Source of the DNA: Chloroflexota bacterium
GTDB taxonomy: Bacteria; Chloroflexota; UBA11872; VXOZ01
DNA length: 64,000 nucleotides
Reading direction: 5' to 3'
NCBI GenBank assembly: GCA_964291655.2
Contig: OZ219802.1
Coordinates: forward strand, 448,001-512,000
Shown: in pieces, positions 16,658-31,536 of the stretch
Layout: every line of letters begins with the position of its first letter
Numbering within the stretch: position 1 is the first letter of the stretch
Notes under the pieces: model-generated
Told to the model about the DNA's origin: nothing
Databases searched by the model: none
What the model saw: only the letters and a program-made list of their open reading frames with translations
Made by a program: the position numbers and the translations under genes

Positions 16658-19600
16658 CTAGTGCCAGTCGTGGGAAGCGGGCATAGGCACCGCGGCGTCG
16701 AGCGCCCGCACGGCCGAGACAATGACGTTGGTAGTGCCGTCCCAGCGGGAGACCTCGCCGGTGGCCAGAATCACCTGGCTGCCGAGCGCGCGACGATGGC
16801 GGGCAAAGACCCGCGGCCAGAGGATGAGCTGGACGCTGCCCACCTCATCCTCAATGGTAACGAACACTGTGCCGTCCCTGCCGCGCGGGTGCTGCCGCGC
16901 CACCGGCCAGCCGGTTACCTGGATCCGCTCGCCCTCTTTCACGTCCTCGATCGCAGTGGTGGGCAACACCTCAGGACCCAACGAGGGGCGGAAGTGCTCC
17001 ATCAGATGCCCCTTGGGATGAATGCCCATGACGGCGTACTCCCCCACCATGCACTCGAAGTCGTTGAAGTCCGTCAACCGGGGCACGTTCTCCGCTGTCG
17101 CCACCGCAAAGGCGCGCTGCCCGTGCTCGCCGGGACGAATGGCGAGACCGGCATCCCAGAGCGCTTCTCTCCGATTCTGCGAATCCTGCGGATTCGGCGC
17201 ATCCTGCGAAGTCGGCGCATCCTGCGAAGTCGGCGCATCCTGCGAAGTCGTTGTCCTCAATGATGTTGGCGTCTCCGACGATGTCGAGGCGATCTCGTCA
17301 AAGGCTCCCGCCTGCACGAGCGATTGCACCGCTTTGGGCTTCACACCCGTGCGCCGCACGAAATCGCTCGCGCCGGTGTACGGGCCGCCGCTCTCTCGCT
17401 CGACCACGATGTTATGCGCCACCTCTTCCCCGATGTCCCTGACGAACCGTAATCCCAGCAGCACCGCGCCCTCCGCGGACGTGCAGCGCACCTGGCTGCG
17501 GTTTATGCACGGATTCCGAAACGGCACGCCGAAGCTCTGCGCGTCCTGCTTAAGCGTTTCCAGCGGATAGAAGCCCATGGGCTGGTTGTTCATCAGGCCG
17601 ATGAAGAATTCCAGCGGATAGTAACGCTTCAGCCACGCGGCCTGATAGGCCGTGATGGCAAAGGCATGGCTGTGGCTCTCCGGAAACATGTAGTGACCGT
17701 TGATCTTGGAGAAAATCTTCTCCGCAACTGCCTCAGGCACTCCCTTACGTTGCGCGCCTTTCCAAAACTGCTGCCAGTGCATGGCGATCAGGTGCGCGTT
17801 ATTGGGCTTGCCGAACGCCCGCCGCACTTCATCGGCCTGCGCCGCCGTCATGCCGCCCACGTCCATGATGAGTTGGACCACCTGCTCCTGCCACACGATG
17901 ATGCCGTAGCCCCGCTCCAGCGCGCGCTGCTCCAAGGGATGATCGTAGTCCCAGGCAACGCCGTGCCGGTAGCGCTCGACGAACTGCGAGACCGCGCTGC
18001 CCTGCACGCCGACGCCGGGTCGGATGAGTGCCACTTGGTAGGCTAAGTCAAGCAGAGTCCGCGAGCGCAGGCGCTGCCCCATCTTGAGCTGCGCCGGCGA
18101 CTGGAGCAGGAAGATGCCGATAGAGCGCCCCGCGTTGATCATGTCGTACACCTGCGGGTCTTCAGGATCGATCCGGCTCAGGTCGGGGCGTGTGCCTTCT
18201 CTCGCTTCAATCAGGTCGAGCGCCTCCTCGATCTGGTCGAGGACGGGCAACGAGAGCAGGTCGATCTTCGCAAAGTTGGCATCCGCCACGGAGTCCTTGT
18301 TCCAGTCCATGATGAAGCGGCCTTCCATGGCGCCGGCACGGATGGGCACCAGCGCCGAAATGGGCTTATCGCTGAGAATCATGCCGCCGACGTGCTGGCC
18401 GATCCCCTTGGGCGCATCCATGAGCGCGGGTCCGAGCGCGATGAGATCGCGCCAGCCTGGAGCCGTCACTTTATCTCTGAACGCGGGCAATCCTAGCATC
18501 TCTTCCTTGAGATTGACGGCATGGTGCGAGTGGAGCTGCTTGGAAAGGAGTGACAGGTCTTCCTTGGGCAACCCCAGCGCTTTCCCCAGGTCTTGGATAA
18601 TGCCCTTCACCGCATAGGTCGCGATGGCGCCGGCCAGCACGGCATATTCCGGCCCAAAGTGGCGGTGCACGCGCTCGAGCAACGGATCTCTGAGCTCGCG
18701 CGGAAAGTCCAGATCGATGTCGGGCAACATGGTCATATCCACTGAGATGAAGCGCTCCAGGGTGAGATTCCACTTGAGCGGGTCCACGTGGCTGATGCCG
18801 ATGAGGTAGCCGACCAAGAGCGCCACCGATGAGCCGCGCCCGCGTCCCGGCGGCCGTTCCTCCAGCGGCGTTGCGGGGTCCATCAATCCCCGCTCGACCA
18901 TGATCTGCTGCGCGATGCCTACGATTTCCCGGTAGAGCAACAGGAAGCCCGCGAGGTTGTGCCTCTCGATCAGGTCGAACTCTTCGTCCAGCCTTTCTTT
19001 CACTTGTACCGTCATCCCGTCATAGCGCCGCACTGCCGCTGCTTCGCAGAGCGTGCGCAAATACTGTGTGAGCGTGAAGCCCTCCGGCACGGCGGGATCA
19101 GGCAGCGTGTAGCCCAGATCGGTGCTGAGATCGAAAGTGCAGTGCTCGGCGATTTTTATGGTATTGGCTATAGCCGCTGGATAGTCTTGCAAAAAATGCG
19201 CCATCTGGGCGTGGGACTTCAGGTGCAGGTGATGGTTGGGTTTGAGGTGGGGCAGCGCCTGATCGATGGTGATATTGCGCTTGGCAGCCTCGAGCGCGTG
19301 CTGCAGCCGGTAGCGCTCCGGCGCGTGATAGTGCACGTCGTTAGTGGCGACCACGGGCACTCCCGCGTCCTGGGCAAGCCGCGCCAGTTCACCATTGCGC
19401 TTCGTATCACCGCGCAGCAAGTTCTGCTGCAGTTCCACGTACACGGACTCATGACCGTACCACGCCACGTACTCTTGCAGCAGCGTCATGGCCGTGGGGT
19501 AGCGTCCGGCCTCGACCAAGCGCGCCGGCGGCCCGTCACGGCCGCCGGTGAGCAAAATCAGGCCCGCGGCATGCGTGGGGAGATGTGCCGGATCCAGCCG

Positions 19601-19966
19601 CGGCTCTCTGCGGTCGACGGCGTTCGCCAAGGTGAAGAGCCGCGCTAGGTTGGCATAGCCCTCGCGTGTCTTGGCTAAGAGGACGATACGCGCACCGTCC
19701 AACAGGGTGAGCTCCCCTCCCGTGATGGGACGAATTTCCAGGCTATTGGCGAGACGGGCAAAATCCAACGCCCCGCAGAGGTTGGTATCGGTCAAGGCGA
19801 GCGCAGCGTACCCGAATGCCTTGGCCTGGGCGAGCAACTCGTGGGTGTGGGAGGCTCCAATCCCGAAGGAATAAAAGCTCTTGGCGTGCAGCTCAACGTA
19901 TCCGCCGGACGGCGACTGCATCGAAGACCGTGCTTGGGGCGAAGACGGTGACTGTATCGAAGGCAT
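16658..19966 (-). CDS. dnaE2: Error-prone DNA polymerase DnaE2 (ImuC)
   Basis: PHP domain (YVELHAKSFYSF), GRGSS, PDIDLDF, QHVGG, FPESH, NNQPMGFY, OB fold, C-terminal SHDWH (SRDFH-like); follows imuB. Confidence 0.95.
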   Translation of the reverse strand: MPSIQSPSSPQARSSMQSPSGGYVELHAKSFYSFGIGASHTHELLAQAKAFGYAALALTDTNLCGALDFARLANSLEIRPITGGELTLLDGARIVLLAKTREGYANLARLFTLANAVDRREPRLDPAHLPTHAAGLILLTGGRDGPPARLVEAGRYPTAMTLLQEYVAWYGHESVYVELQQNLLRGDTKRNGELARLAQDAGVPVVATNDVHYHAPERYRLQHALEAAKRNITIDQALPHLKPNHHLHLKSHAQMAHFLQDYPAAIANTIKIAEHCTFDLSTDLGYTLPDPAVPEGFTLTQYLRTLCEAAAVRRYDGMTVQVKERLDEEFDLIERHNLAGFLLLYREIVGIAQQIMVERGLMDPATPLEERPPGRGRGSSVALLVGYLIGISHVDPLKWNLTLERFISVDMTMLPDIDLDFPRELRDPLLERVHRHFGPEYAVLAGAIATYAVKGIIQDLGKALGLPKEDLSLLSKQLHSHHAVNLKEEMLGLPAFRDKVTAPGWRDLIALGPALMDAPKGIGQHVGGMILSDKPISALVPIRAGAMEGRFIMDWNKDSVADANFAKIDLLSLPVLDQIEEALDLIEAREGTRPDLSRIDPEDPQVYDMINAGRSIGIFLLQSPAQLKMGQRLRSRTLLDLAYQVALIRPGVGVQGSAVSQFVERYRHGVAWDYDHPLEQRALERGYGIIVWQEQVVQLIMDVGGMTAAQADEVRRAFGKPNNAHLIAMHWQQFWKGAQRKGVPEAVAEKIFSKINGHYMFPESHSHAFAITAYQAAWLKRYYPLEFFIGLMNNQPMGFYPLETLKQDAQSFGVPFRNPCINRSQVRCTSAEGAVLLGLRFVRDIGEEVAHNIVVERESGGPYTGASDFVRRTGVKPKAVQSLVQAGAFDEIASTSSETPTSLRTTTSQDAPTSQDAPTSQDAPNPQDSQNRREALWDAGLAIRPGEHGQRAFAVATAENVPRLTDFNDFECMVGEYAVMGIHPKGHLMEHFRPSLGPEVLPTTAIEDVKEGERIQVTGWPVARQHPRGRDGTVFVTIEDEVGSVQLILWPRVFARHRRALGSQVILATGEVSRWDGTTNVIVSAVRALDAAVPMPASHDWH
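17184..17249 (-). repeat. In-frame 18-bp tandem repeat inside dnaE2 (TSQDAP x3 plus a degenerate unit)
   Basis: GCATCCTGCGAAGTCGGC repeated on the + strand. Confidence 0.9.
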
Positions 19967-19976
19967 CGGGCTATCC

Positions 19977-21419
19977 CTACGCGGCCTGCCGGTACCAGCA
20001 GCCGTCCCGTTGGTCGTGGAACAGCGTAAGCGGGATGCCATCCGCCCGCCGCACCCGGTAGTAGGTGCGCGTCAGCGGCGCGGCCAGCCACCAAAGATCG
20101 AAGCACCACTGGTCGTCGATGCCGGCCACCCGGTGCCAGCGGTTCTTCAGGCGTACCGCTACGGGCCGGTTATCCTCACCTGCCCGCACCTCGGCTGCCG
20201 TGGGCGTGGCGAGCGGCTTCATGCTGTCCTTCACTGCCGGATCGATAGGCACCTGCAGCGCGCGCAACTCCGGCGCGGGATGCCAGGGGGCAATATCCAC
20301 CACGCGGAACAAAGATCTCTTGCCCTGCATGCGGGCCTGGAGCTGCCTGTCCGCCTCCACCAAGCGGTCACTTTTTTCCCTGCGGACGTCGCGGAGCAAC
20401 CCCATCTGCGTGGCGGACTCACCTGTGAGGTTAGCCAGAGTGAGCGTCACTTCCTCCACGGGCGCAGGCGGATAGTCGGCCTCCAGACGGTTTCTGATGA
20501 TGCGGGCGGCCCGCTCGCAGCCCACGCCGTGCTTGAAGTTGATCACTCTCTCCCATGGCGGAGATCGGAAAAGACCGCACTGTATGGTGGCCTGTTCGGC
20601 ATAGCGTCCCCGCATCTGCGGCTGCGCGTACGCGCTTTTCAGCAGACCGTCCAGCGTCACCAGGAAGAGTTCCAGAGAGGTGGAAACAAAGGGCAGCGTG
20701 ACGTGCGCGGTGACGGACTCCTCATGTTTCAGCGGGATAAGCGGCTCGTCGTCAATGCCGTGGCAGAGTTGCCAGGCCCGGGTGCCGTCAGCGCCGAACT
20801 GGTCGCTGAGTTGGTCCACGCGCATGGCCGCCACGTCGCCCAAGGTACGCAAGCCGAAACGCTGCAGGCACTCATGTACCGCGGGTTCAAGCGGCAGCAG
20901 CGTCACGGGATGCGGCGCCAAGAACGCCGCCGCATACGCAGGCGCCCGCGTTACCTCTCCCGCCCGGCCGGTCCGGGCCGCGACGAAAGCGGTGAATTTG
21001 GCGTCCGCCACGCCCACGCGCGGCGCGAGGTATTGAGGAATGGCGTTTCGCAAAGCGTTGACGAGCCGCTCTTCACCGCCGTAGAGGGTCTCAAGCCCGT
21101 CCAGGCGCACGTACGCGACACCCAGCGCCGCCTGCTCCACCCGGTCGCTCACTGCCTGCAAGGCAGTAAGAACCTGCCGGAAGACCCGCCGGTAGACCGG
21201 TTCATTGGCCTCGATGACAACGGTGTCGGCATTGTGAGAGAGCGCTTCTTCCAGCGACATGCCCACCGCCACCCCGGTGGCAGCCGGGAAAACGTCAATG
21301 ACCGTAGGGCTACCCTCTGAGCGATCAACGATCACAGCCGGCGCTGCCACCAAGTCCGGCTGCCGCAGCAACTCGCACTTAGCACGCAGGTGGGTAATGA
21401 GCACACACGCGACCTTCAT
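19977..21419 (-). CDS. imuB: ImuB-like catalytically inactive Y-family polymerase
   Basis: Y-family layout (GVAVGMSL.EA, RVGVADAKFTA, FGLRTLGD) without the acidic catalytic residues; C-terminal W..D.WW...R.YYRV tail; directly upstream of dnaE2. Confidence 0.88.
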   Translation of the reverse strand: MKVACVLITHLRAKCELLRQPDLVAAPAVIVDRSEGSPTVIDVFPAATGVAVGMSLEEALSHNADTVVIEANEPVYRRVFRQVLTALQAVSDRVEQAALGVAYVRLDGLETLYGGEERLVNALRNAIPQYLAPRVGVADAKFTAFVAARTGRAGEVTRAPAYAAAFLAPHPVTLLPLEPAVHECLQRFGLRTLGDVAAMRVDQLSDQFGADGTRAWQLCHGIDDEPLIPLKHEESVTAHVTLPFVSTSLELFLVTLDGLLKSAYAQPQMRGRYAEQATIQCGLFRSPPWERVINFKHGVGCERAARIIRNRLEADYPPAPVEEVTLTLANLTGESATQMGLLRDVRREKSDRLVEADRQLQARMQGKRSLFRVVDIAPWHPAPELRALQVPIDPAVKDSMKPLATPTAAEVRAGEDNRPVAVRLKNRWHRVAGIDDQWCFDLWWLAAPLTRTYYRVRRADGIPLTLFHDQRDGCWYRQAA

Positions 21420-21775
21420 GATGCCGGGACCTTTGTCCGTACCTATCGTCCTGTTCTCTGCCACTTAAGAACTTCGTTTTTGTGCGGAATCCGCAATGAG
21501 GGATCAGAAGTTCACGTGCATGACGAAAGGGGGGCCAGGCTAAATGCCACATGGGAAAAACACCATCTGTACGCTAAGCTCAACGTGGCAGATGATGGAT
21601 AAAAAAACACTAGAGGACGTGCACTTCTTCACGTAAGAGAACTGTGAAACCTCTATTGGCAAGAAGTGTATCCATGAACTCCTGAGGTCAAGAGTCAGGA
21701 CGGAATAACATCTTAGGCTTAGATCAGTCGCCTATAGCGCACGGCTGTGCCTAGGCACAACCCAGCTGCTAATAC

Positions 21776-24430: not shown

Positions 24431-24485
24431 TCTCTTTGACGTAGTAAGTCAGGTTGCACTGGAACAAGATGAATCCTCCGTACTA

Positions 24486-24843
24486 GCCGTAGCGCGGGGG
24501 CTTGTCCCCCGCCCTTAGGCGCCAAAGGCAAGACCCCATTCGGGCAGGTCGCTCTAGGCACTATCACACTTCGTCTTGCAAAGTGAAGGGTCGTCTTGCC
24601 GTAGCGCGGGGGCTTGTCCCCCGCTCTTGGGCGCCAAAGGCAAGACCCCATTCGGGCAGGTCGCTCTAGGCGCTATCACACTTCGTCTTGCAAAGTGAAG
24701 GGTCGTCTTGCCGTAGCGCGGGGGCTTGTCCCCCGCTCTTGGGCGCCAGAGGCAAAACCCCATTCGGGCAGGTCGCTCTAGGCACTATCACACTTCGTCT
24801 TGCAAAGTGAAGGGTCGAGACCAATGCAATCGGTCTCGACCCT
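24486..24843. repeat. Three near-identical 112-bp tandem units, each with a GTAG-type REP, ending in a hairpin
   Basis: Units start at 24486, 24598, 24710 with GCCGTAGCGCGGGGGCTTGTCCCCCGC; terminal hairpin AGGGTCGAGACC..GGTCTCGACCCT at 24811-24843; degenerate solo REP at ~3625-3649. Confidence 0.95.
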
Positions 24844-25323: not shown

Positions 25324-25524
25324 GCCGCCAAACCTCCTTTGGTTTGATCTGTAAAGGGTGCCGCAACACTTCTAGAATTGCGCAACTGCGCTAAAGCACA
25401 CACCTAGACATGCCAATATATGACACACGTATTGCGGTGTGTCAAGTGGTATCTGGCGTCCGGCACACGCGCTGGGGAGTGCTAAAGCGCCTTCCTACCC
25501 ATAGCCGGTAAGCGCGAGTCCGGC

Positions 25525-25787
25525 CCGGTAGCGCAGGTTTGCAACCTGCGTCCCCCGCCGATAGTCTCGATTGCTGAAATACTGCCCACGCCGCCTCTCC
25601 TTCCGGTAGCGCAGGTTTGCAACCTGCGTCCCTCGCCGTCTGTTTCGATTGCTGATTTACTGCGCCCGCCGTCTCTCCTGCCGGTAGCGCAGGTTTGCAA
25701 CCTGCGTCCCCCGCCGCCTGTTTCGATTGCTGACTCACTGCGCCCGCCGCCTATTCTCCCGGGTAGCGCAGGTTTGCAACCTGCGTC
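25525..25787. repeat. Four copies of a GTAG-type REP at ~78-bp period
   Basis: GGTAGCGCAGGTTTGCAACCTGCGTC repeated four times; the intervening segments are mutually similar (TCGATTGCTGA..ACTGC..CGCCG). Confidence 0.93.
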
Positions 25788-25824
25788 TGCGCCTATTTTC
25801 CCGGCTGCCTCTCTTGCTCCGCCC

Positions 25825-26220
25825 TCATTCCGTAGCGCGTAGGCGGTCCAATTTGCCCGGCCAGGCGAGCATGCGCTCGTCGGCGGTGATGAGCGTGTGG
25901 CCCTCCAAAGCCGTGGCGACGATGAGCCGGTCGGCGGGATCTCCGTGCATGTCCGGCAGTAGGCCAGCGCGAGTTGCCACACGTCCATCCACAGGAATCT
26001 CGATCACACCCTGATCGAGCAGATCACGCCGCCAGGCAGCGAGCTCAAAACGCAGGGCAAGCTGACCCTTCTGCATGCGCATGCCGACCTCCCAGAACGA
26101 AATGGCCGAAACCGCCGCCTGCCCCTCTGCCAGCGCCCGTGCCACGGCGCGGCGGGCGTGCGGCCCCAGCCGCCGGTCGCCTTGCTCCTGCCACACCAGC
26201 ACGTGCGTATCCAAGAGCAT
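25825..26220 (-). CDS. vapC: VapC family PIN-domain toxin
   Basis: LLDTHVLVW, SAISFWE, HGDPADRLIVATA, LITAD. Confidence 0.93.
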   Translation of the reverse strand: MLLDTHVLVWQEQGDRRLGPHARRAVARALAEGQAAVSAISFWEVGMRMQKGQLALRFELAAWRRDLLDQGVIEIPVDGRVATRAGLLPDMHGDPADRLIVATALEGHTLITADERMLAWPGKLDRLRATE

Positions 26221-26501
26221 CAAAACAGGTCTTCTCCCATTTCGCCGTCATCGAACCACTCTGCCGGCATCGGTTCCACAATCTCACCGAGGATTTCGAT
26301 ATTCTCTCGATTGCGGCCGAACACAGTCTGCGGCCGCTCCCGATACGGCGCCAGCCGCGAGACCGGCCGGCCGCGCTTGGTGATGATGATCTCCTCACCA
26401 CTCGCCGCCACCTCGTCCATAAGCTGCAAGCACTTCGCCTTAAACTCCGACGCCTTCACCACCCGCACCCCACCGGTGTTAATGCTGTTGTCGTCTGCCA
26501 T
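26220..26501 (-). CDS. Phd/YefM family antitoxin
   Basis: ASEFKAKCLQLMDEV..SGEEIIITKRGRPVSRL. Confidence 0.93.
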   Translation of the reverse strand: MADDNSINTGGVRVVKASEFKAKCLQLMDEVAASGEEIIITKRGRPVSRLAPYRERPQTVFGRNRENIEILGEIVEPMPAEWFDDGEMGEDLF

Positions 26502-26534
26502 GCCCCGCCATTCTGGTCTGGAGGAATTTGGTTA

Positions 26535-26562
26535 ATTGTACCATAGTCATGACCATGGTCAT
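26535..26562 (-). promoter_or_regulatory. Extended -10 box and palindromic operator of TA module 2
   Basis: TGgTACAAT on the minus strand next to the palindrome ATGACCATGGTCAT and an imperfect second copy. Confidence 0.6.
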
Positions 26563-26581
26563 AAGCGCCGTGATTGCGTCA

Positions 26582-26621
26582 TCTTGTCCCCTCTCCCCGG
26601 GGAGAGGGTTAGGATGAGGGG
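26582..26621. repeat. REP-like palindrome, family C (intact copy of the IS1182 target)
   Basis: TCTTGTCCCCTCTCCCCGGGGAGAGGGTTAGGATGAGGGG matches the rejoined IS flanks. Confidence 0.8.
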
Positions 26622-26721
26622 AAATGAACAGGCCGGCCTACAGACTAAGTCAGTCTTGCCAATTCAAGAGGCATCGCCTAGTCTGAAACGTGGTCGAGTC
26701 AGGGCAAGAATGGAGCGGCCC

Positions 26722-26967
26722 ATGAGGAACAGATGGTCGGCACAGCAAGCGCGCTTGCGTTTCACCGAGTTCCTCCAAGCGTGTGAATCCGCTGGACCCC
26801 AAATCGTGACCCAGCACGGCGTAGAGACTGCCGTCCTCGTTCCCATCGAGCACTGGCGAAAGCTGGAGAAGTCTAACAAACCGAACCTGAAAGACTTGCT
26901 TCTCGCCGCGGAAGCCCGGACGGAAGAACTAATGCCACCTCGCGTGAAGCGTAGGAAGCCTAAATAA
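26722..26967 (+). CDS. Phd/YefM family antitoxin with no cognate PIN/RelE toxin
   Basis: WSAQQARLRFTEFL..GPQIVTQHGVETAVLVPIEHW..LKDLLL; GGAG RBS. Confidence 0.8.
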   Translation: MRNRWSAQQARLRFTEFLQACESAGPQIVTQHGVETAVLVPIEHWRKLEKSNKPNLKDLLLAAEARTEELMPPRVKRRKPK

Positions 26968-26971
26968 TGGA

Positions 26972-28063
26972 GTGGAGACTGTGATTCTCGTATTTGCAGG
27001 TGCCGGAGCTTCATATGCAGTTGATTGCAAACAGTATCCCACCACGGTTGAGTTCTTTAGGCGTCTTCCTGAAGAAATAACAAAGAAACCATGGTTTGCC
27101 GCAGCTTCTCAATTCCTGGACACTTCAGCTAATGGAGAGCCTAAGGACATTGAGAAGCTACTTGGTGTTCTGAGCGAAATGGAAGAGTTCTGTAAGAAAT
27201 CAGTTGACCCAAACACAATTTCAGGACGGATGTTGCAGCCAGGTTATGATCGCCTAAGAAAAGTAAACCCCCAAAGCCGGTCCAATTTAGAAAGTGGGCA
27301 CCATAGGATACTTGTAGACACACTAAGGGAGGATCAAGTTTCAATCGAGAGACTGCGAGATGAGATTAACGCTCAAGTCTATAGATTCTATGCGGAAGTT
27401 CCTGACCCGAAGAAACTGCACAATTGGACGAGGCTGTTAAGGTTGCTCACAGAAGCGCCTCAGGTAGTTCAGATTTTCACGACTAACTATGATCTTGTTA
27501 TTGAGAGCGCCATCAGTGAAGCTGGACTAGACAAGGAAATCGCCACTGGTAGGGATAGCGACGGGTTCAGAACTCGGCTAGACCTGGATTATTGGGATAC
27601 TCAGAATGAGCTAATAAACACGCAAGAAGAACGGGGACTCTTGACGAAACTACATGGATCAGTAGATTGGCAACGTGGCAGCAGAGGTGAAATTGTCATG
27701 GGCCCGCCACGGTTTACTGAGGTCCATCAAAACCACATAGTCCTATACCCTGGGCATAAGGGAGAACCAAGAGAAGAGCCGTTTATCGCTTTTCATAGAC
27801 ATTTAAGGTCAATAGCAGAAAGAGCGAAGGCTGCGTTTTTCATTGGCTACTCATTCGGAGACGACCACATCAACGAAATACTTTCCAATTTCATGGCTCA
27901 CGTTCCGACGTACGCTATAAACAAGAAGCGAGAGCAAGACAAGCTGGAATTCCTTTACAATGTGATGCATTTTGATGATGGATTCACAGATGAGGCCGTC
28001 AATAAATGTTTTGGGTTCCTACTTGAGCACGATCTGATCCACCAGCCGGCGGCCAACTGGTAG
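26972..28063 (+). CDS. SIR2-like domain protein (SIR2_2 type, putative NADase)
   Basis: GAGAS, FTTNYD, KLHGSVDW, IGYSFGD.HIN motifs; visibly more AT-rich than its flanks. Confidence 0.9.
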   Translation: METVILVFAGAGASYAVDCKQYPTTVEFFRRLPEEITKKPWFAAASQFLDTSANGEPKDIEKLLGVLSEMEEFCKKSVDPNTISGRMLQPGYDRLRKVNPQSRSNLESGHHRILVDTLREDQVSIERLRDEINAQVYRFYAEVPDPKKLHNWTRLLRLLTEAPQVVQIFTTNYDLVIESAISEAGLDKEIATGRDSDGFRTRLDLDYWDTQNELINTQEERGLLTKLHGSVDWQRGSRGEIVMGPPRFTEVHQNHIVLYPGHKGEPREEPFIAFHRHLRSIAERAKAAFFIGYSFGDDHINEILSNFMAHVPTYAINKKREQDKLEFLYNVMHFDDGFTDEAVNKCFGFLLEHDLIHQPAANW

Positions 28064-28184
28064 GCAGAATTCAACTGGCGAACCAAAATTCACCCTCATT
28101 TCCAATTGGCCATTGGGAGGTACGTGATGCGGGTATAGGCCGCAAGGATCATTCCCTTGCATATGATCTAGCTGACAAATGCGT

Positions 28185-31109
28185 TTAGGTGAACAGTTTT
28201 ACGTTCTTGGGACGGGACTTTCCGCCGTGGACGGAGGGTTCGGCGCACCATTTGGCGGCGAGGCGGCGGACGGCTGTGTAGGTTTGTTCGTCGAAGTTCA
28301 AGAGGTCACGGATGACGCGGCGGTCGAGGAGGGCGCGGTTGGGGTCGGCGTCGGCGAGGTAGGCGGGCTGCAACTTTTTGTCGCGGAATTCGTCGAAGAT
28401 TTCTTCCGCCTCGTTCAGTTGATTGTCGCTGAGGGCGCGGAAGTCGAGGACGGGAAGAGATTCAGCGGAGCGGATAGTTATTCCAGCCTTGCTCGACTGC
28501 TGTCGGTTGGCGTGCCACCAATAGCAAAGCAACCCCAATGTACTGTTGCCCCAAACCGCAAAAGCGTATTCGAACCTACTTTCCTCAAATGCCACGTTAG
28601 GCCAAACTCGACCTCCGATTGATTCCCTTTCCGTAAAGGAAACGGCGAGTGGCTGAGAGCCAAAAGTATATTCGAGATTCAGGTGGGCCCGGCTGGCTCT
28701 AGCCCAAACTGCGTTGGCCTTCTGCTCCATTCCTTGCCTTACTAGCAATTGAGAATCCGGCTGGCACAGAATCCGGGTTTCGTTCTTGGCATCATGATTC
28801 CAAAGAGCAGGATAGGTCGCTGTTAGGCTTGGTTGGGCTTTGTCAAAAGGCCCTTGGGGAGGCCCACTAGATGGCCAACCGGTAATGTCCAGATGATGAA
28901 ATCCCATACTAGCAATGGTTCCAAGCCGCACTTGCCTCAAATTCAAGATGTTTGGGCTGCCAGGTAGCCATAGTTGTCCCTTTGACAGCGCGTAGCAGGT
29001 CTGAGCAAGCGAGTAGTCAGACAAGCGTACGGATCCCCAAGCTGCCCCATTCACTTCAATGGGTGCCTCTATAGTCTCTCCCGCAAAGTCGGTGCCAATC
29101 GCTAAGCTCGTGCCCCCATAGGGTCCATCCTCCAATTGCCGGATATCGCCAGGCTCTTCTAAAGCTTTTGCAGTTGCGCTCGCCTCCGCAAGTCCCTTTG
29201 GGCGCAAACGCAGCGAAGCAAATTGAGATCTTGCATGAGCAGAGGCCCCACTCGCAGCCTCCTTACCTTTGCGCGCGACCAACAGACAGTCTGCCATTCC
29301 TGTGTCGGATGAAAATGACATTTCACTACCGGTAGTTGAAATACTCAATACTGTCAGGTCTCCATAGCGATGCTCAATCATCTGTCGAAACCCTTGCCAT
29401 GACAGACCAGAGGCCGTAGATAAAGGTAAAACTAGTGCCAGGATTCCGCCAGGCTTCAATTTGCGGTCAGCCAATGCAGCAAAAGCTGAGGCCATTCCCG
29501 CGTGACCGTGATAGCAGGTTCCCTTCCTAAAGACGGCCATGCGTTTCGCCATTTCCCTCTGGTCTTCTTTGCTTGCGTTGAATGCAGCAAACGCGCCAGC
29601 GAAAGTCCCCGCGTACCCCGCCTCTTTGTTTGTATTTCGAGTGAATGGCGGGTTCATGATCACCATGTCAAACCCCTCATCCGGGACATCCACGGTAATT
29701 TGGGCCGCGGTTTCCTCACCCGCGCTGCCGGTGCGGAGGGCGGGGTCGCTGGTGTTGAAGAGGGTTTGGACGTCTGATCGCTGCAGAAGTTCCAGGGAGC
29801 CGATCTTTACCGTGCCGTCGGGCTGGCGGCCGTAGGGCATGGTGTAAAGGCGGGAGCTGCCAAAGGCTTCCCCAGGTTCCACGCCGGAGAGGGTGGAGCC
29901 GGTGATGTGGATGGCCGAGGGCATCACGTCGCAGCCATAGAGCACATCTTCCATCATGGCGCGGTGCAGGGCGGCCGGATTGCCGCCGGCGCGCTCGTGT
30001 TTGGCGGCGATCTGCTCGTACACCGCCGAGAGTAGCGCGCCCGTGCCGCAGGCAAAATCGGCGATGCGCAGCTTGCCGATGGCGCCGGCATCCGCCCAGT
30101 CCACGCCTGGCAGCTTGGCCACGGCCAGCCGCGCCAGCAGCGCCGCCGACGCGGGCAGCGTGTAGAACGTCGCCAGATACTTGCGGTCGGCAATGAGGCG
30201 CTGGAAGATGCGGCCGGTCAAGTCGTGGGAATTCTCCACGCCCATAGACCTCACCGCCTGGGCCGTATCCCGCAAGCGCCGCAATATGCGCGCCGCCTCA
30301 GCCGCGGGCAAATGCATCAGAATGTCCCTGGCGACGGCAAAGATCGCCCAATAGTTGATCTCCAGAATGTCCTGCCACGCCGCGAGCACCTCACCCTGCG
30401 GATTGGCAACGTCATCGCCGCAGACCATGTTCAGGGACTTTACCCCAGAATGCATGCCGTAGATGCGCTCGTGGAAGACCAGAGCGTTGGCGATGATGGC
30501 GCAGGCCATGCGGCGCGTCTGCGGCACGTTGCTCATGCCGAGGAGACGGGCGATATCCATGGTGATTGCCTGGCGGTTGGTGTCCATCTCGTCCAGGATC
30601 TTTGCCGCCGCGTTGATACCCTCCTGCAGCGTGTCGGTGGCATCATCCACGGCCCGCTGCGGCACGGAGACCAAGCGTGCCAGATCGGCTACGTCCTCAG
30701 GTCCACCCTCCAGCCAGCCGGACGCCGGAAAGCGACTGACGCCCCTCTTCTCTTCCGTAAAGACACAGTAAGACAGACGGGCCTGCCGCAGAGCGGAAGG
30801 GAGATCGTCAGCATCAGCAATCTCATCGGGATACCGAAGCGCGATGGCGGCCCCGATGCGCCGTGCGCTCGCCGCTACCTCCAAACCCAAACGCGACTTG
30901 GCTTCATCCTCCACGGTCGCGCCGGGCACATACTCCGCCTCGATCACCACCGGCGCGCGGCCGGGATCCTCGATGATTATGTCGGGCCGCAGACCCGGAT
31001 GCCCCGTAATCGCCTGCGTACTCTCAGCGCGCACGTGACTGCGGGAGAGCATGCCTTGCAGCACACTTTCCATTGCGTTGTTGACACTTGGCTCGGTCTG
31101 ACGCGCCAT
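28185..31109 (-). CDS. Type IIG-like restriction-modification protein (PD-(D/E)xK-like nuclease, amino-methyltransferase, specificity region)
   Basis: RPDIIIE..VVIEAEY at the N-terminus; FYT, DFACGTG (motif I), NPPF (motif IV), LKPGG.LALVLP. Confidence 0.85.
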   Translation of the reverse strand: MARQTEPSVNNAMESVLQGMLSRSHVRAESTQAITGHPGLRPDIIIEDPGRAPVVIEAEYVPGATVEDEAKSRLGLEVAASARRIGAAIALRYPDEIADADDLPSALRQARLSYCVFTEEKRGVSRFPASGWLEGGPEDVADLARLVSVPQRAVDDATDTLQEGINAAAKILDEMDTNRQAITMDIARLLGMSNVPQTRRMACAIIANALVFHERIYGMHSGVKSLNMVCGDDVANPQGEVLAAWQDILEINYWAIFAVARDILMHLPAAEAARILRRLRDTAQAVRSMGVENSHDLTGRIFQRLIADRKYLATFYTLPASAALLARLAVAKLPGVDWADAGAIGKLRIADFACGTGALLSAVYEQIAAKHERAGGNPAALHRAMMEDVLYGCDVMPSAIHITGSTLSGVEPGEAFGSSRLYTMPYGRQPDGTVKIGSLELLQRSDVQTLFNTSDPALRTGSAGEETAAQITVDVPDEGFDMVIMNPPFTRNTNKEAGYAGTFAGAFAAFNASKEDQREMAKRMAVFRKGTCYHGHAGMASAFAALADRKLKPGGILALVLPLSTASGLSWQGFRQMIEHRYGDLTVLSISTTGSEMSFSSDTGMADCLLVARKGKEAASGASAHARSQFASLRLRPKGLAEASATAKALEEPGDIRQLEDGPYGGTSLAIGTDFAGETIEAPIEVNGAAWGSVRLSDYSLAQTCYALSKGQLWLPGSPNILNLRQVRLGTIASMGFHHLDITGWPSSGPPQGPFDKAQPSLTATYPALWNHDAKNETRILCQPDSQLLVRQGMEQKANAVWARASRAHLNLEYTFGSQPLAVSFTERESIGGRVWPNVAFEESRFEYAFAVWGNSTLGLLCYWWHANRQQSSKAGITIRSAESLPVLDFRALSDNQLNEAEEIFDEFRDKKLQPAYLADADPNRALLDRRVIRDLLNFDEQTYTAVRRLAAKWCAEPSVHGGKSRPKNVKLFT

Positions 31110-31536
31110 CTCTGCTGCAGCTCCCTCAGTCCGCCCCTGCAATTCCCAAGAAGTTCAACAGTACTATTGTACGTGGTATCAGCTGCTGTAGCAGGTCCTA
31201 CCATATTGAAAGTTCGCACAAGCTAGGTTGAAGGCCCCTCCACTTCCGTTGGAATGCCGCTACACTATTCAACCCTATCTCCCTGAGGGCCTATGCGAAT
31301 CGCCTTGATCTACCTTGGCTAACGGTTAGATTGAAGGTTGTAAAAGGCTTGAGGCTACGCAAATTACGAAATCATTATTGCCTCTGGATTCCGGCTTGCG
31401 CCGGAATGACGGCCTGCGCGGGACATTCCCTTAAAGCCCGCTAAGACCTTCCTATGATTTCCCTGAACTTCTACACACTTTCTTTGCATAGTCCCGTACG
31501 CTGGACGTAGAGGGACTGAGTGTGAGTATGTGAACC

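Follow-up and report, generated by a model that had tools for sequence, protein, structure and literature searches.

We analysed a 64,000-nucleotide stretch from a Chloroflexota bacterium (GenBank assembly GCA_964291655.2, contig OZ219802.1, positions 448,001 to 512,000), here called the window, in which phd2, a gene for an antitoxin of the Phd/YefM type, is followed almost immediately by a gene for a SIR2-domain protein. The original prediction saw in these two genes a new toxin-antitoxin (TA) or abortive-infection module, with Phd repressing or neutralising a SIR2 enzyme that depletes nicotinamide adenine dinucleotide (NAD). The locus combines two elements of known kinds in a defence island, an orphaned antitoxin gene and a SIR2 gene that stands alone, and their adjacency is likely to be the product of a cassette replacement.

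The phd2-SIR2 locus and its junction

The open reading frame (ORF) of Phd2 extends from 26536 to 26967 on the plus strand. Read from ATG 26722, which is the start in 26 aligned homologues, it matches PF02604 PhdYeFM_antitox (E 9.8e-13) as well as TIGR01552 phd_fam (E 1e-13), and its TAA stop occupies 26965-26967, which bears out the claim of a Phd/YefM gene ending at 26967. The encoded protein (26722-26967, plus strand) has 81 residues compared with 86 in 24 of the 26 other aligned sequences. It lacks the last five residues of the family form and ends in RRKPK instead of RRRxxPxxx(D/E), RKPK being a foreign tail.

The SIR2 ORF (26972-28063, plus strand) comprises 363 codons from GTG 26972 and matches PF13289 SIR2_2 (E 1.3e-14). 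Thirty-three PADLOC SIR2-type profiles recognise it, the best being Aga_SIR2 (6.3e-28), followed by SIR2 (8e-27), with ThsA at 7.8e-06. The frame is indeed open 4 bp behind phd2, as had been noted, but the family alignment favours a later start. Because all 37 aligned family members begin with MILVF..GAG, which corresponds to GTG 26981, we placed the start at this codon; GGAG boxes lie 4-12 nt upstream of it in the ribosome-binding site GGAGTGGAG. The true start is probably GTG 26981, 13 bp rather than 4 bp past the Phd2 stop. The resulting solo SIR2_2 protein has 360 residues (26981-28063, plus strand). The family-invariant motifs GAGxS (G7, A8, G9, S11), FTTNYD (N169, D171) and LTKLHGS (H225) are all present and align with those of the solved SIR2-HerA SIR2 proteins, so that the motifs are intact as originally described. 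Conservation of the catalytic residues N169 and H225 makes the protein a putative NAD+-hydrolysing defence effector. The R293G change in GYSFGDDHIN was considered as a possible defect and rejected, since the solved SIR2-HerA proteins carry G, P or K at this position. AlphaFold yielded a confident model with a pLDDT (predicted local distance difference test) of 85.4 and a pTM (predicted template modelling score) of 0.84. In a search with the NCBIfam equivalog NF042942 SIR2_antiphage, the protein scored 42.5 bits, below the curated 500-bit cut-off.

In agreement with the claim that SIR2 is AT-richer than its host, the G+C content is 0.45-0.47 over 27000-27999 compared with 0.64 at 25500-26499 and 0.62-0.65 at 29500-30999. 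In blastn comparisons, the match to genomes G005 and G003 extends from vapC1, a neighbouring toxin gene, across phd2 as far as 26951 and 26955, respectively. On the other side, G001, G008 and G009 match again from 28217-28219, a position just within the 3' end of a gene for a 985-residue protein. As homology breaks off inside the last Phd2 codons and is picked up again at 28217, SIR2 lies in a variable, low-GC replacement cassette of about 1.26 kb (26952-28216). This cassette contains SIR2 only, and its borders coincide with the points at which the homology blocks of loci L003, L077, L079, L161 and L162 stop (26951-26955) and resume (28217-28219). A pairwise alignment with G009 revealed that the two phd2 genes match up to GTGAAGCG and diverge after Phd2 codon 77. 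Past this point, G009 continues with the last ten phd2 codons and then with ATG TAC CTG CTC GAC of vapC2, while in the window five codons of foreign origin lead to a stop, after which comes the ribosome-binding site of SIR2. Judged from these alignments, the cassette replaced vapC2 and clipped the Phd2 tail. A vapC2 remnant was looked for in the window and none was found, and no DNA motif common to the junctions of the window and G021 was seen.

The left junction (26952-26980, plus strand) consists of the last Phd2 codons with their stop, followed by the ribosome-binding site, without room for a separate promoter. Since the cassette contributes no more than about 30 bp ahead of the SIR2 start, too little for a promoter of its own, SIR2 most likely uses the phd2 promoter. 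The genes phd1 and phd2 are divergent, and the control region that separates them (26534-26721) is kept in L003, L077 and L079, also where Phd2 is broken or absent. It harbors a perfect 14-nt palindrome, ATGACCATGGTCAT, at 26549-26562 and a predicted promoter-like site on the minus strand (26562-26535). Promoter prediction in the control region called no plus-strand promoter; TTGCCA-17-TAGTCT upstream of Phd2 is a candidate picked by eye from the sequence.

Comparative context of Phd2 and SIR2

Of 98 genomes belonging to the same bacterial class, 35 contained homologues of Phd2 (E <=1e-5), and the best 29 loci were read. At 26 of them the next gene encodes a PF01850 PIN protein at a gap of 1-7 bp. 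A 27th locus, L173 in G074, has an intact VapC behind Phd2, which had been masked by ORF picking. The two without PIN are the orphans of G005 (L162) and G021 (L189). The PIN toxins begin with (M/V)YLLDTNVVSELRR. At the syntenic loci of G003, G015 and G009, Phd2-VapC2 still stands beside Phd1-VapC1, and the window's own genome contains a paralogous pair (C2:2225221-2225884), whose Phd is 55% identical and whose VapC is 77% identical to VapC2 of G009. With PIN/VapC behind 27 of 29 homologues, Phd2 is therefore, on comparative grounds, a VapB-type partner of PIN toxins that is orphaned in the window, and SIR2 indeed occupies the place where a VapC normally stands. Phd2 is thus a clear member of the antitoxin family of VapBC systems with a Phd/YefM fold. 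The window differs from such systems in that no PIN toxin follows, the antitoxin tail is clipped and a SIR2 gene of foreign composition comes next. A 308-residue "downstream ORF" in L162 and a 492-residue ORF in L173 were discarded as artefacts, both being open frames in GC-rich DNA. Directly behind VapC of the Phd2-VapC pair in L173 lies a Schlafen AlbA_2 domain region, another defence-type neighbour.

The genomes of the genus have a common backbone consisting of a gene for a 143-residue membrane protein, short repeats, VapC1-Phd1, the control region, Phd2, a variable stretch and the 985-residue protein gene. G003 and G015, compared as far as VapC2, carry VapC2 in the variable slot. In G009, VapC2 is accompanied by DUF3226 and an AAA_21 ATPase (PDC-M38/AbiL-like in PADLOC), a SIR2 of 35% identity, ApeA-HEPN (PDC-S58) and a 188-residue ORF. 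The slot of G005 holds DUF3226 and the ATPase only, convergent on an orphan Phd2, and no SIR2. G008 has DUF3226 with the AAA_21 ATPase, a 569-residue protein of no family and SIR2 (47%), but no Phd2; G001 has a broken Phd2, SIR2 (46%), ApeA and the 985-residue protein gene as fragments; and the window has SIR2 alone. From these comparisons, the stretch between Phd2-VapC2 and the 985-residue protein gene is a defence-island hot spot, of which SIR2 is one movable occupant.

The syntenic locus of G001 (L003) deserves particular attention. Its Phd2 carries a 1-bp insertion, lacks the 3' third and escapes detection by Pfam, while the SIR2 behind it is intact, with 354 residues and all motifs. SIR2 alleles of the same clade in G008, G009 and G011 have no Phd2 in front. 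Among the 16 other genomes of the genus, four carry a SIR2 of the window's family, and one distant SIR2 occurs elsewhere. In a quick tree, all six alleles from the genus group into a single clade with long branches (SH-aLRT, the Shimodaira-Hasegawa-like approximate likelihood ratio test, 99), in which the window and G001 are sisters with a support of 90. In G021 (L189 267-1743), an 81-residue orphan Phd2 precedes a DUF3644 protein (PADLOC PDC-S19, E 2.1e-116), and an integrase-like fragment lies on the other side of this locus. The 569-residue protein, which has no Pfam or PADLOC match, is encoded 137 bp upstream of SIR2 on the same strand both in G008 (L077 4543-6252, minus strand) and in a metagenome (L080 655-2361, plus strand). 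At L081, a 471-residue protein without a match holds the same position.

A protein database search yielded 1151 SIR2 relatives at E <=0.001, nearly all of 300-430 residues. A few are fused to a C-terminal TPR array (508-587 residues), and the search for fused forms returned a single other longer relative, a 706-residue protein combining SIR2_2 with PF06439. The phage collection contained no match to SIR2. The plasmid collection yielded 220 SIR2 records, none of which reached 60% identity (the highest was 27.7%); their only annotation was "SIR2 family protein".

Two sets of loci were scanned for upstream genes. In the genome set, 32 near-full-length loci of 66 were used (L034-L067, which are partial or below about 33% identity, were left out), and Pfam detected no same-strand Phd among 126 ORFs ending <=500 bp upstream of SIR2. 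The sole Phd match was the opposite-strand Phd1 orthologue in L003. The metagenome set started from 80 loci, 44 of which had a match from residues 1-3; after removal of six without an upstream ORF and of three duplicates, 35 remained, and their 89 upstream ORFs included no Phd according to Pfam. Instead, the genes upstream of SIR2 are mixed and comprise a type I-like HsdM+S fusion, Shedu, an AbiL-like ATPase, transposases, GyrB, UvrA, PolA, dehydrogenases and more. Unsupervised clustering of ORFs of >=70 residues from 58 loci gave only two recurrent neighbours, the 985-residue protein gene (six loci of one lineage) and the HsdM+S fusion (five loci). The latter lies just upstream of SIR2 in L002, L005 and L025 (gap 42-62 bp) and in L078 and L081, representing a sister clade and one allele of the genus; an HsdR-like gene is found upstream in L002, L005 and L078. 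The HsdM+S-linked proteins may constitute a SIR2 subgroup embedded in restriction-modification (R-M) loci.

Among solved structures, the SIR2 subunits of SIR2-HerA (Nezha) systems (PDB 8w9l, 8wld, 8su9/8suw, 8j4u, 8yhx) are the best match in sequence and fold. Profile searches gave E values of 1.5e-18, 1.1e-16 and 6.5e-12, and Foldseek, with a model on the window side, gave E 1e-12 to 1e-9 at TM (template modelling) scores of about 0.55-0.62. The motifs iFTTNYD, KLHGS..W and GY.F.D.hIN are common to both, and the lengths are 360 versus 381-428 residues. In contrast, sequence identity is only 14-21%, the window contains no HerA (the nearest PF01935 match is about 82 kb away, in a family that matches every control genome too), and no HerA-like neighbour recurs in the 58 family loci. 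Thoeris ThsA, the SPARSA SIR2-APAZ/pAgo (prokaryotic Argonaute) proteins, DSR1/DSR2 and Avs5 have the SIR2 catalytic core in common with the window protein but gave weak profile or fold matches (Foldseek E about 1e-5 for DSR2 and Avs5). The window SIR2 lacks SLOG, APAZ, pAgo, STAND and the C-terminal sensor of about 1000 residues and has no ThsB/TIR neighbour. Pfam searches of the ORFs between 16.6 and 34.9 kb found no pAgo, HerA, TIR or STAND, so that the absence of a pAgo, HerA, ThsB or STAND partner holds over this range.

A stand-alone Sir2 defence protein, sole-Sir2, is also known. In the available part of its description (bioRxiv 10.1101/2024.12.27.630466), it has no antitoxin and converts NAD+ to ADP-ribose, and a homologue protects against T2 and T4. 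Like the window SIR2, it is encoded by one gene alone in a defence setting, and its promoter is under repression. By the same partial description, with which alone we compared it, sole-Sir2 differs in its length of about 440 residues, with a C-terminal Sir2 domain resembling DSR2 behind an unrelated N-terminal part. The Rossmann fold of the window SIR2 begins at residue 1 and its nearest structures are of the SIR2-HerA type. The accessible portion of a study of type III Sir2-HerA (PMC13434337) reports Sir2 alone to be without detectable NADase activity. By analogy, SIR2 proteins of the type nearest among the solved structures are not necessarily toxic by themselves.

Interpretation of the arrangement

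The data argue with fair confidence for the following model. The phd2-SIR2 adjacency is likely to have arisen by cassette replacement, with SIR2 as an autonomous, HerA-less defence candidate that now follows an orphaned VapB-type antitoxin gene and relies on the promoter of that gene. Recombination in the window's lineage would have removed vapC2 together with the last phd2 codons and brought in a low-GC solo SIR2 gene that carries its own ribosome-binding site and starts 13 bp after the phd2 stop. The slot would be one in which defence-type cassettes come and go, among them the PDC-M38/AbiL-like ATPase with DUF3226, ApeA-HEPN, SIR2 and the 569-residue protein. Read-through from the phd2 promoter would provide SIR2 transcription, and Phd2 may incidentally set the expression level. 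The SIR2 protein would act alone as an NAD+-hydrolysing abortive-infection effector and, like other SIR2 defence proteins, would be kept inactive until infection by the way it folds or oligomerises. Phd2 may be retained for a reason of its own, for example autoregulation or cross-neutralisation of a paralogous VapC elsewhere in the genome.

A constitutive toxin that needs Phd2 should not persist behind a broken Phd2, as SIR2 does in G001, or without any Phd2, as in G008, G009 and G011. Conversely, orphan Phd2 is retained without SIR2 in G005 and G021, which implies that its retention does not require SIR2; in G021, an orphan of the same clipped length precedes a different single-gene defence candidate. 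The junction and the VapC partnership of the Phd2 family favour the alternative offered with the original prediction, namely that SIR2 displaced vapC and uses its promoter, although the use of the promoter is the more conditional half of this statement. That close SIR2 homologues never have Phd upstream, which had been named as evidence against a functional module, holds for all 67 readable loci but probably not for the closest homologue, P0002 (68% identity). Co-occurrence of the two genes as neighbours, as expected of a TA pair, was seen, in the loci read, only in the window and in the decayed copy of G001, and two further contigs may have it by descent.

Several findings weigh against a mere by-product of cassette turnover. 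An 81-residue Phd2, P0124 (78% identity), is encoded on one 7,889-bp contig, and the closest SIR2 homologue, P0002, likewise on one contig, of equal size. Similarly, the 81-residue Phd2 P0126 (73%) and the SIR2 homologue P0015 (46%) are each on a contig of 3,589,502 bp. From these matching sizes we infer linkage of P0124 with P0002 and of P0126 with P0015 on two contigs; adjacency was not seen, and the arrangement is probably not unique to the window. If the genes are adjacent there, a clipped Phd2-SIR2 unit was inherited in a small clade, and Phd2 stayed open while SIR2 diverged, which fits selection for some coupling. Moreover, five clipped Phd2 forms, including P0124, P0126, P0139 and that of G021, are exactly 81 residues long and have unrelated seven-residue tails, a uniformity that random deletion does not obviously explain. 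In the window, the Phd2 reading frame is intact and not decaying. All 30 invariant family columns are retained, those of the C-terminal toxin-binding stretch included. The ratio of nonsynonymous to synonymous substitution rates (dN/dS) between Phd2 of the window and its orthologues is 0.13-0.27, a weak point, and that among three VapC-linked syntenic orthologues is 0.11-0.15; dS is mostly >1, and the values are hence too saturated to show relaxation. Finally, phd2 and SIR2 most likely form one transcript because of the 13-bp spacing without promoter room, and at least transcriptional coupling is expected.

One rival explanation is that, once vapC2 was gone, selection preserved Phd2 as a repressor of the shared promoter that holds a potentially harmful SIR2 at a safe level without any protein-protein neutralisation; the antitoxin would have become the transcription factor of a defence gene. 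The missing promoter space within 13 bp, the upstream control region kept in G001 even though Phd2 is broken there, the intact Phd2 with its conserved core residues and the apparent co-occurrence of 81-residue forms with SIR2 homologues on two other contigs are all consistent with such a role. A precedent is found in the available part of the sole-Sir2 preprint, according to which CRISPR-like RNAs inhibit the promoters of candidate systems, that of the stand-alone Sir2 included (bioRxiv 10.1101/2024.12.27.630466). However, SIR2 is intact in G001 despite the broken Phd2, the alleles of G008, G009 and G011 manage without Phd2 in front, and orphan Phd2 occurs without SIR2 in G005 and G021. Furthermore, conservation in Phd2 extends to the C-terminal stretch for toxin binding, which would be dispensable if Phd2 only bound DNA. 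We consider this role of Phd2 unlikely.

A related explanation, to which we give somewhat less credence still, is a partner swap in progress. Here the clipped 81-residue Phd2 would have been captured by the SIR2 cassette as repressor, neutraliser or both and would serve as a reusable front end for single-gene effectors, with SIR2 in the window and apparently in two related assemblies and with DUF3644/PDC-S19 in G021. If true, it would be an example of a TA antitoxin being turned into the control element of an immune gene for an NADase.

The idea that SIR2 acts as a back-up to the adjacent R-M enzyme is weak. PrrC fires on inhibition of the R-M enzyme EcoprrI, and SIR2 might in the same manner be a latent suicide effector that responds to R-M inhibition. 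All SIR2 alleles of the window's family in the genus are near the 985-residue methyltransferase gene, and in five other loci the SIR2 of the sister clade is just downstream of the type I-like HsdM+S fusion. Yet all 17 genomes of the genus carry the 985-residue protein gene, but just 4 of the 16 besides that of the window have a SIR2 of the family, the two genes converge and form no operon, 48 of 58 family loci lack such a neighbour, and R-M genes are common in defence islands anyway. A functional tie of this kind is very improbable.

Least probable, with hardly any weight left to it, is the TA-like or abortive-infection pair originally proposed, in which Phd2 would bind and neutralise the SIR2 NADase and loss of the labile antitoxin during infection would release NAD+ depletion: antitoxin-first order, tight spacing, the conserved C-terminal region of orphan Phd2 forms, the probable co-occurrence of an 81-residue Phd2 and a SIR2 homologue on two more contigs and the existence of NAD-consuming TA toxins such as RES and MbcT speak for it, but the 67 readable SIR2 loci without Phd upstream, the VapC-specific antitoxin family (27 of 29 loci), the junction that clipped the Phd2 tail, the intact SIR2 behind the broken Phd2 of G001 and the same-clade alleles without Phd2 in G008, G009 and G011 speak against it. 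In addition, full-text searching of the library used returned no paper that speaks of a SIR2 toxin or a Sir2 antitoxin, and none of the 15 titles listed for SIR2 and Phd in a TA context dealt with such a pair. A complex prediction for SIR2 and Phd2 gave a score of 0.00 against a mark of 0.32; it was run without controls and is counted neither for nor against binding.

At face value, the two genes would be the first case of a SIR2 NADase as a type II TA toxin, a reading that the comparative data do not support. Under cassette replacement, the locus illustrates the origin of look-alike TA pairs: when cassette turnover removes the toxin from a TA locus bordering a defence island, the antitoxin gene is left heading an unrelated effector. 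This calls for caution in predicting new TA or defence modules from adjacency. The SIR2 protein itself belongs to a large HerA-less family of about 350 residues, nearest to the SIR2-HerA type, which is found in defence islands, sometimes behind type I-like methylase genes, and is uncharacterised in the literature searched. Orphan Phd genes that stay intact after toxin loss raise the question of why they are retained.

Surrounding genes

On the left, the cassette is preceded by a complete, divergent Phd1-VapC1 pair on the minus strand. VapC1 (25825-26223) is a PIN-domain toxin (PF01850, E 1.5e-12) with 83-95% identity in sister genomes and is part of the backbone, outside the SIR2 cassette. Its antitoxin Phd1 (26220-26501) matches PF02604 (E 4.2e-09) and has no significant similarity to Phd2 (BLASTP E 0.5).

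The right backbone flank is formed by the gene for the 985-residue protein (28185-31142, minus strand), which is convergent with SIR2 and contains an N6-adenine methyltransferase with an NPPF motif. It matches an Eco57I-type methyltransferase family (E 3.3e-06) and the PADLOC profiles MTase_II (3.4e-11) and mad2 (5.8e-11). With 66-79% identity among the 17 genomes, G001 having fragments only, it is a core gene of the genus. In five genomes (G002, G004, G011, G012 and G015) the match contains one in-frame TAG, and in G011 it is also split. In G001 (L003 5107-5379 and 6743-7231), the last ~90 codons of the gene are duplicated and flank the ApeA-HEPN gene, the second copy of the 3' end being fused to about 73 first codons of the same gene. 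This duplication looks like a cassette insertion by recombination in the 3' segment of the gene.

Further Pfam matches among the ORFs between 16.6 and 34.9 kb comprise a DnaE2-like polymerase, an ImuB-like IMS protein, ABM, PhyH with HEAT, a second Phd and PIN pair, the 985-residue methyltransferase-containing protein, a pyridoxal phosphate-dependent decarboxylase, ACT and cupin. Two sets of short tandem-like repeats are located at 24450-24830 and 25520-25790, between the membrane-protein gene and VapC1, with spacings of about 112 bp (24488, 24600, 24712) and about 78 bp (25525, 25602, 25681, 25762). Both repeat units have copies in sister genomes as well as at other places of the G011 locus. 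At 16658-21464 on the minus strand, about 5 kb from the island, a mutagenesis cassette encodes a DnaE2-type error-prone polymerase of 1127 residues followed by the ImuB-like IMS-family protein.

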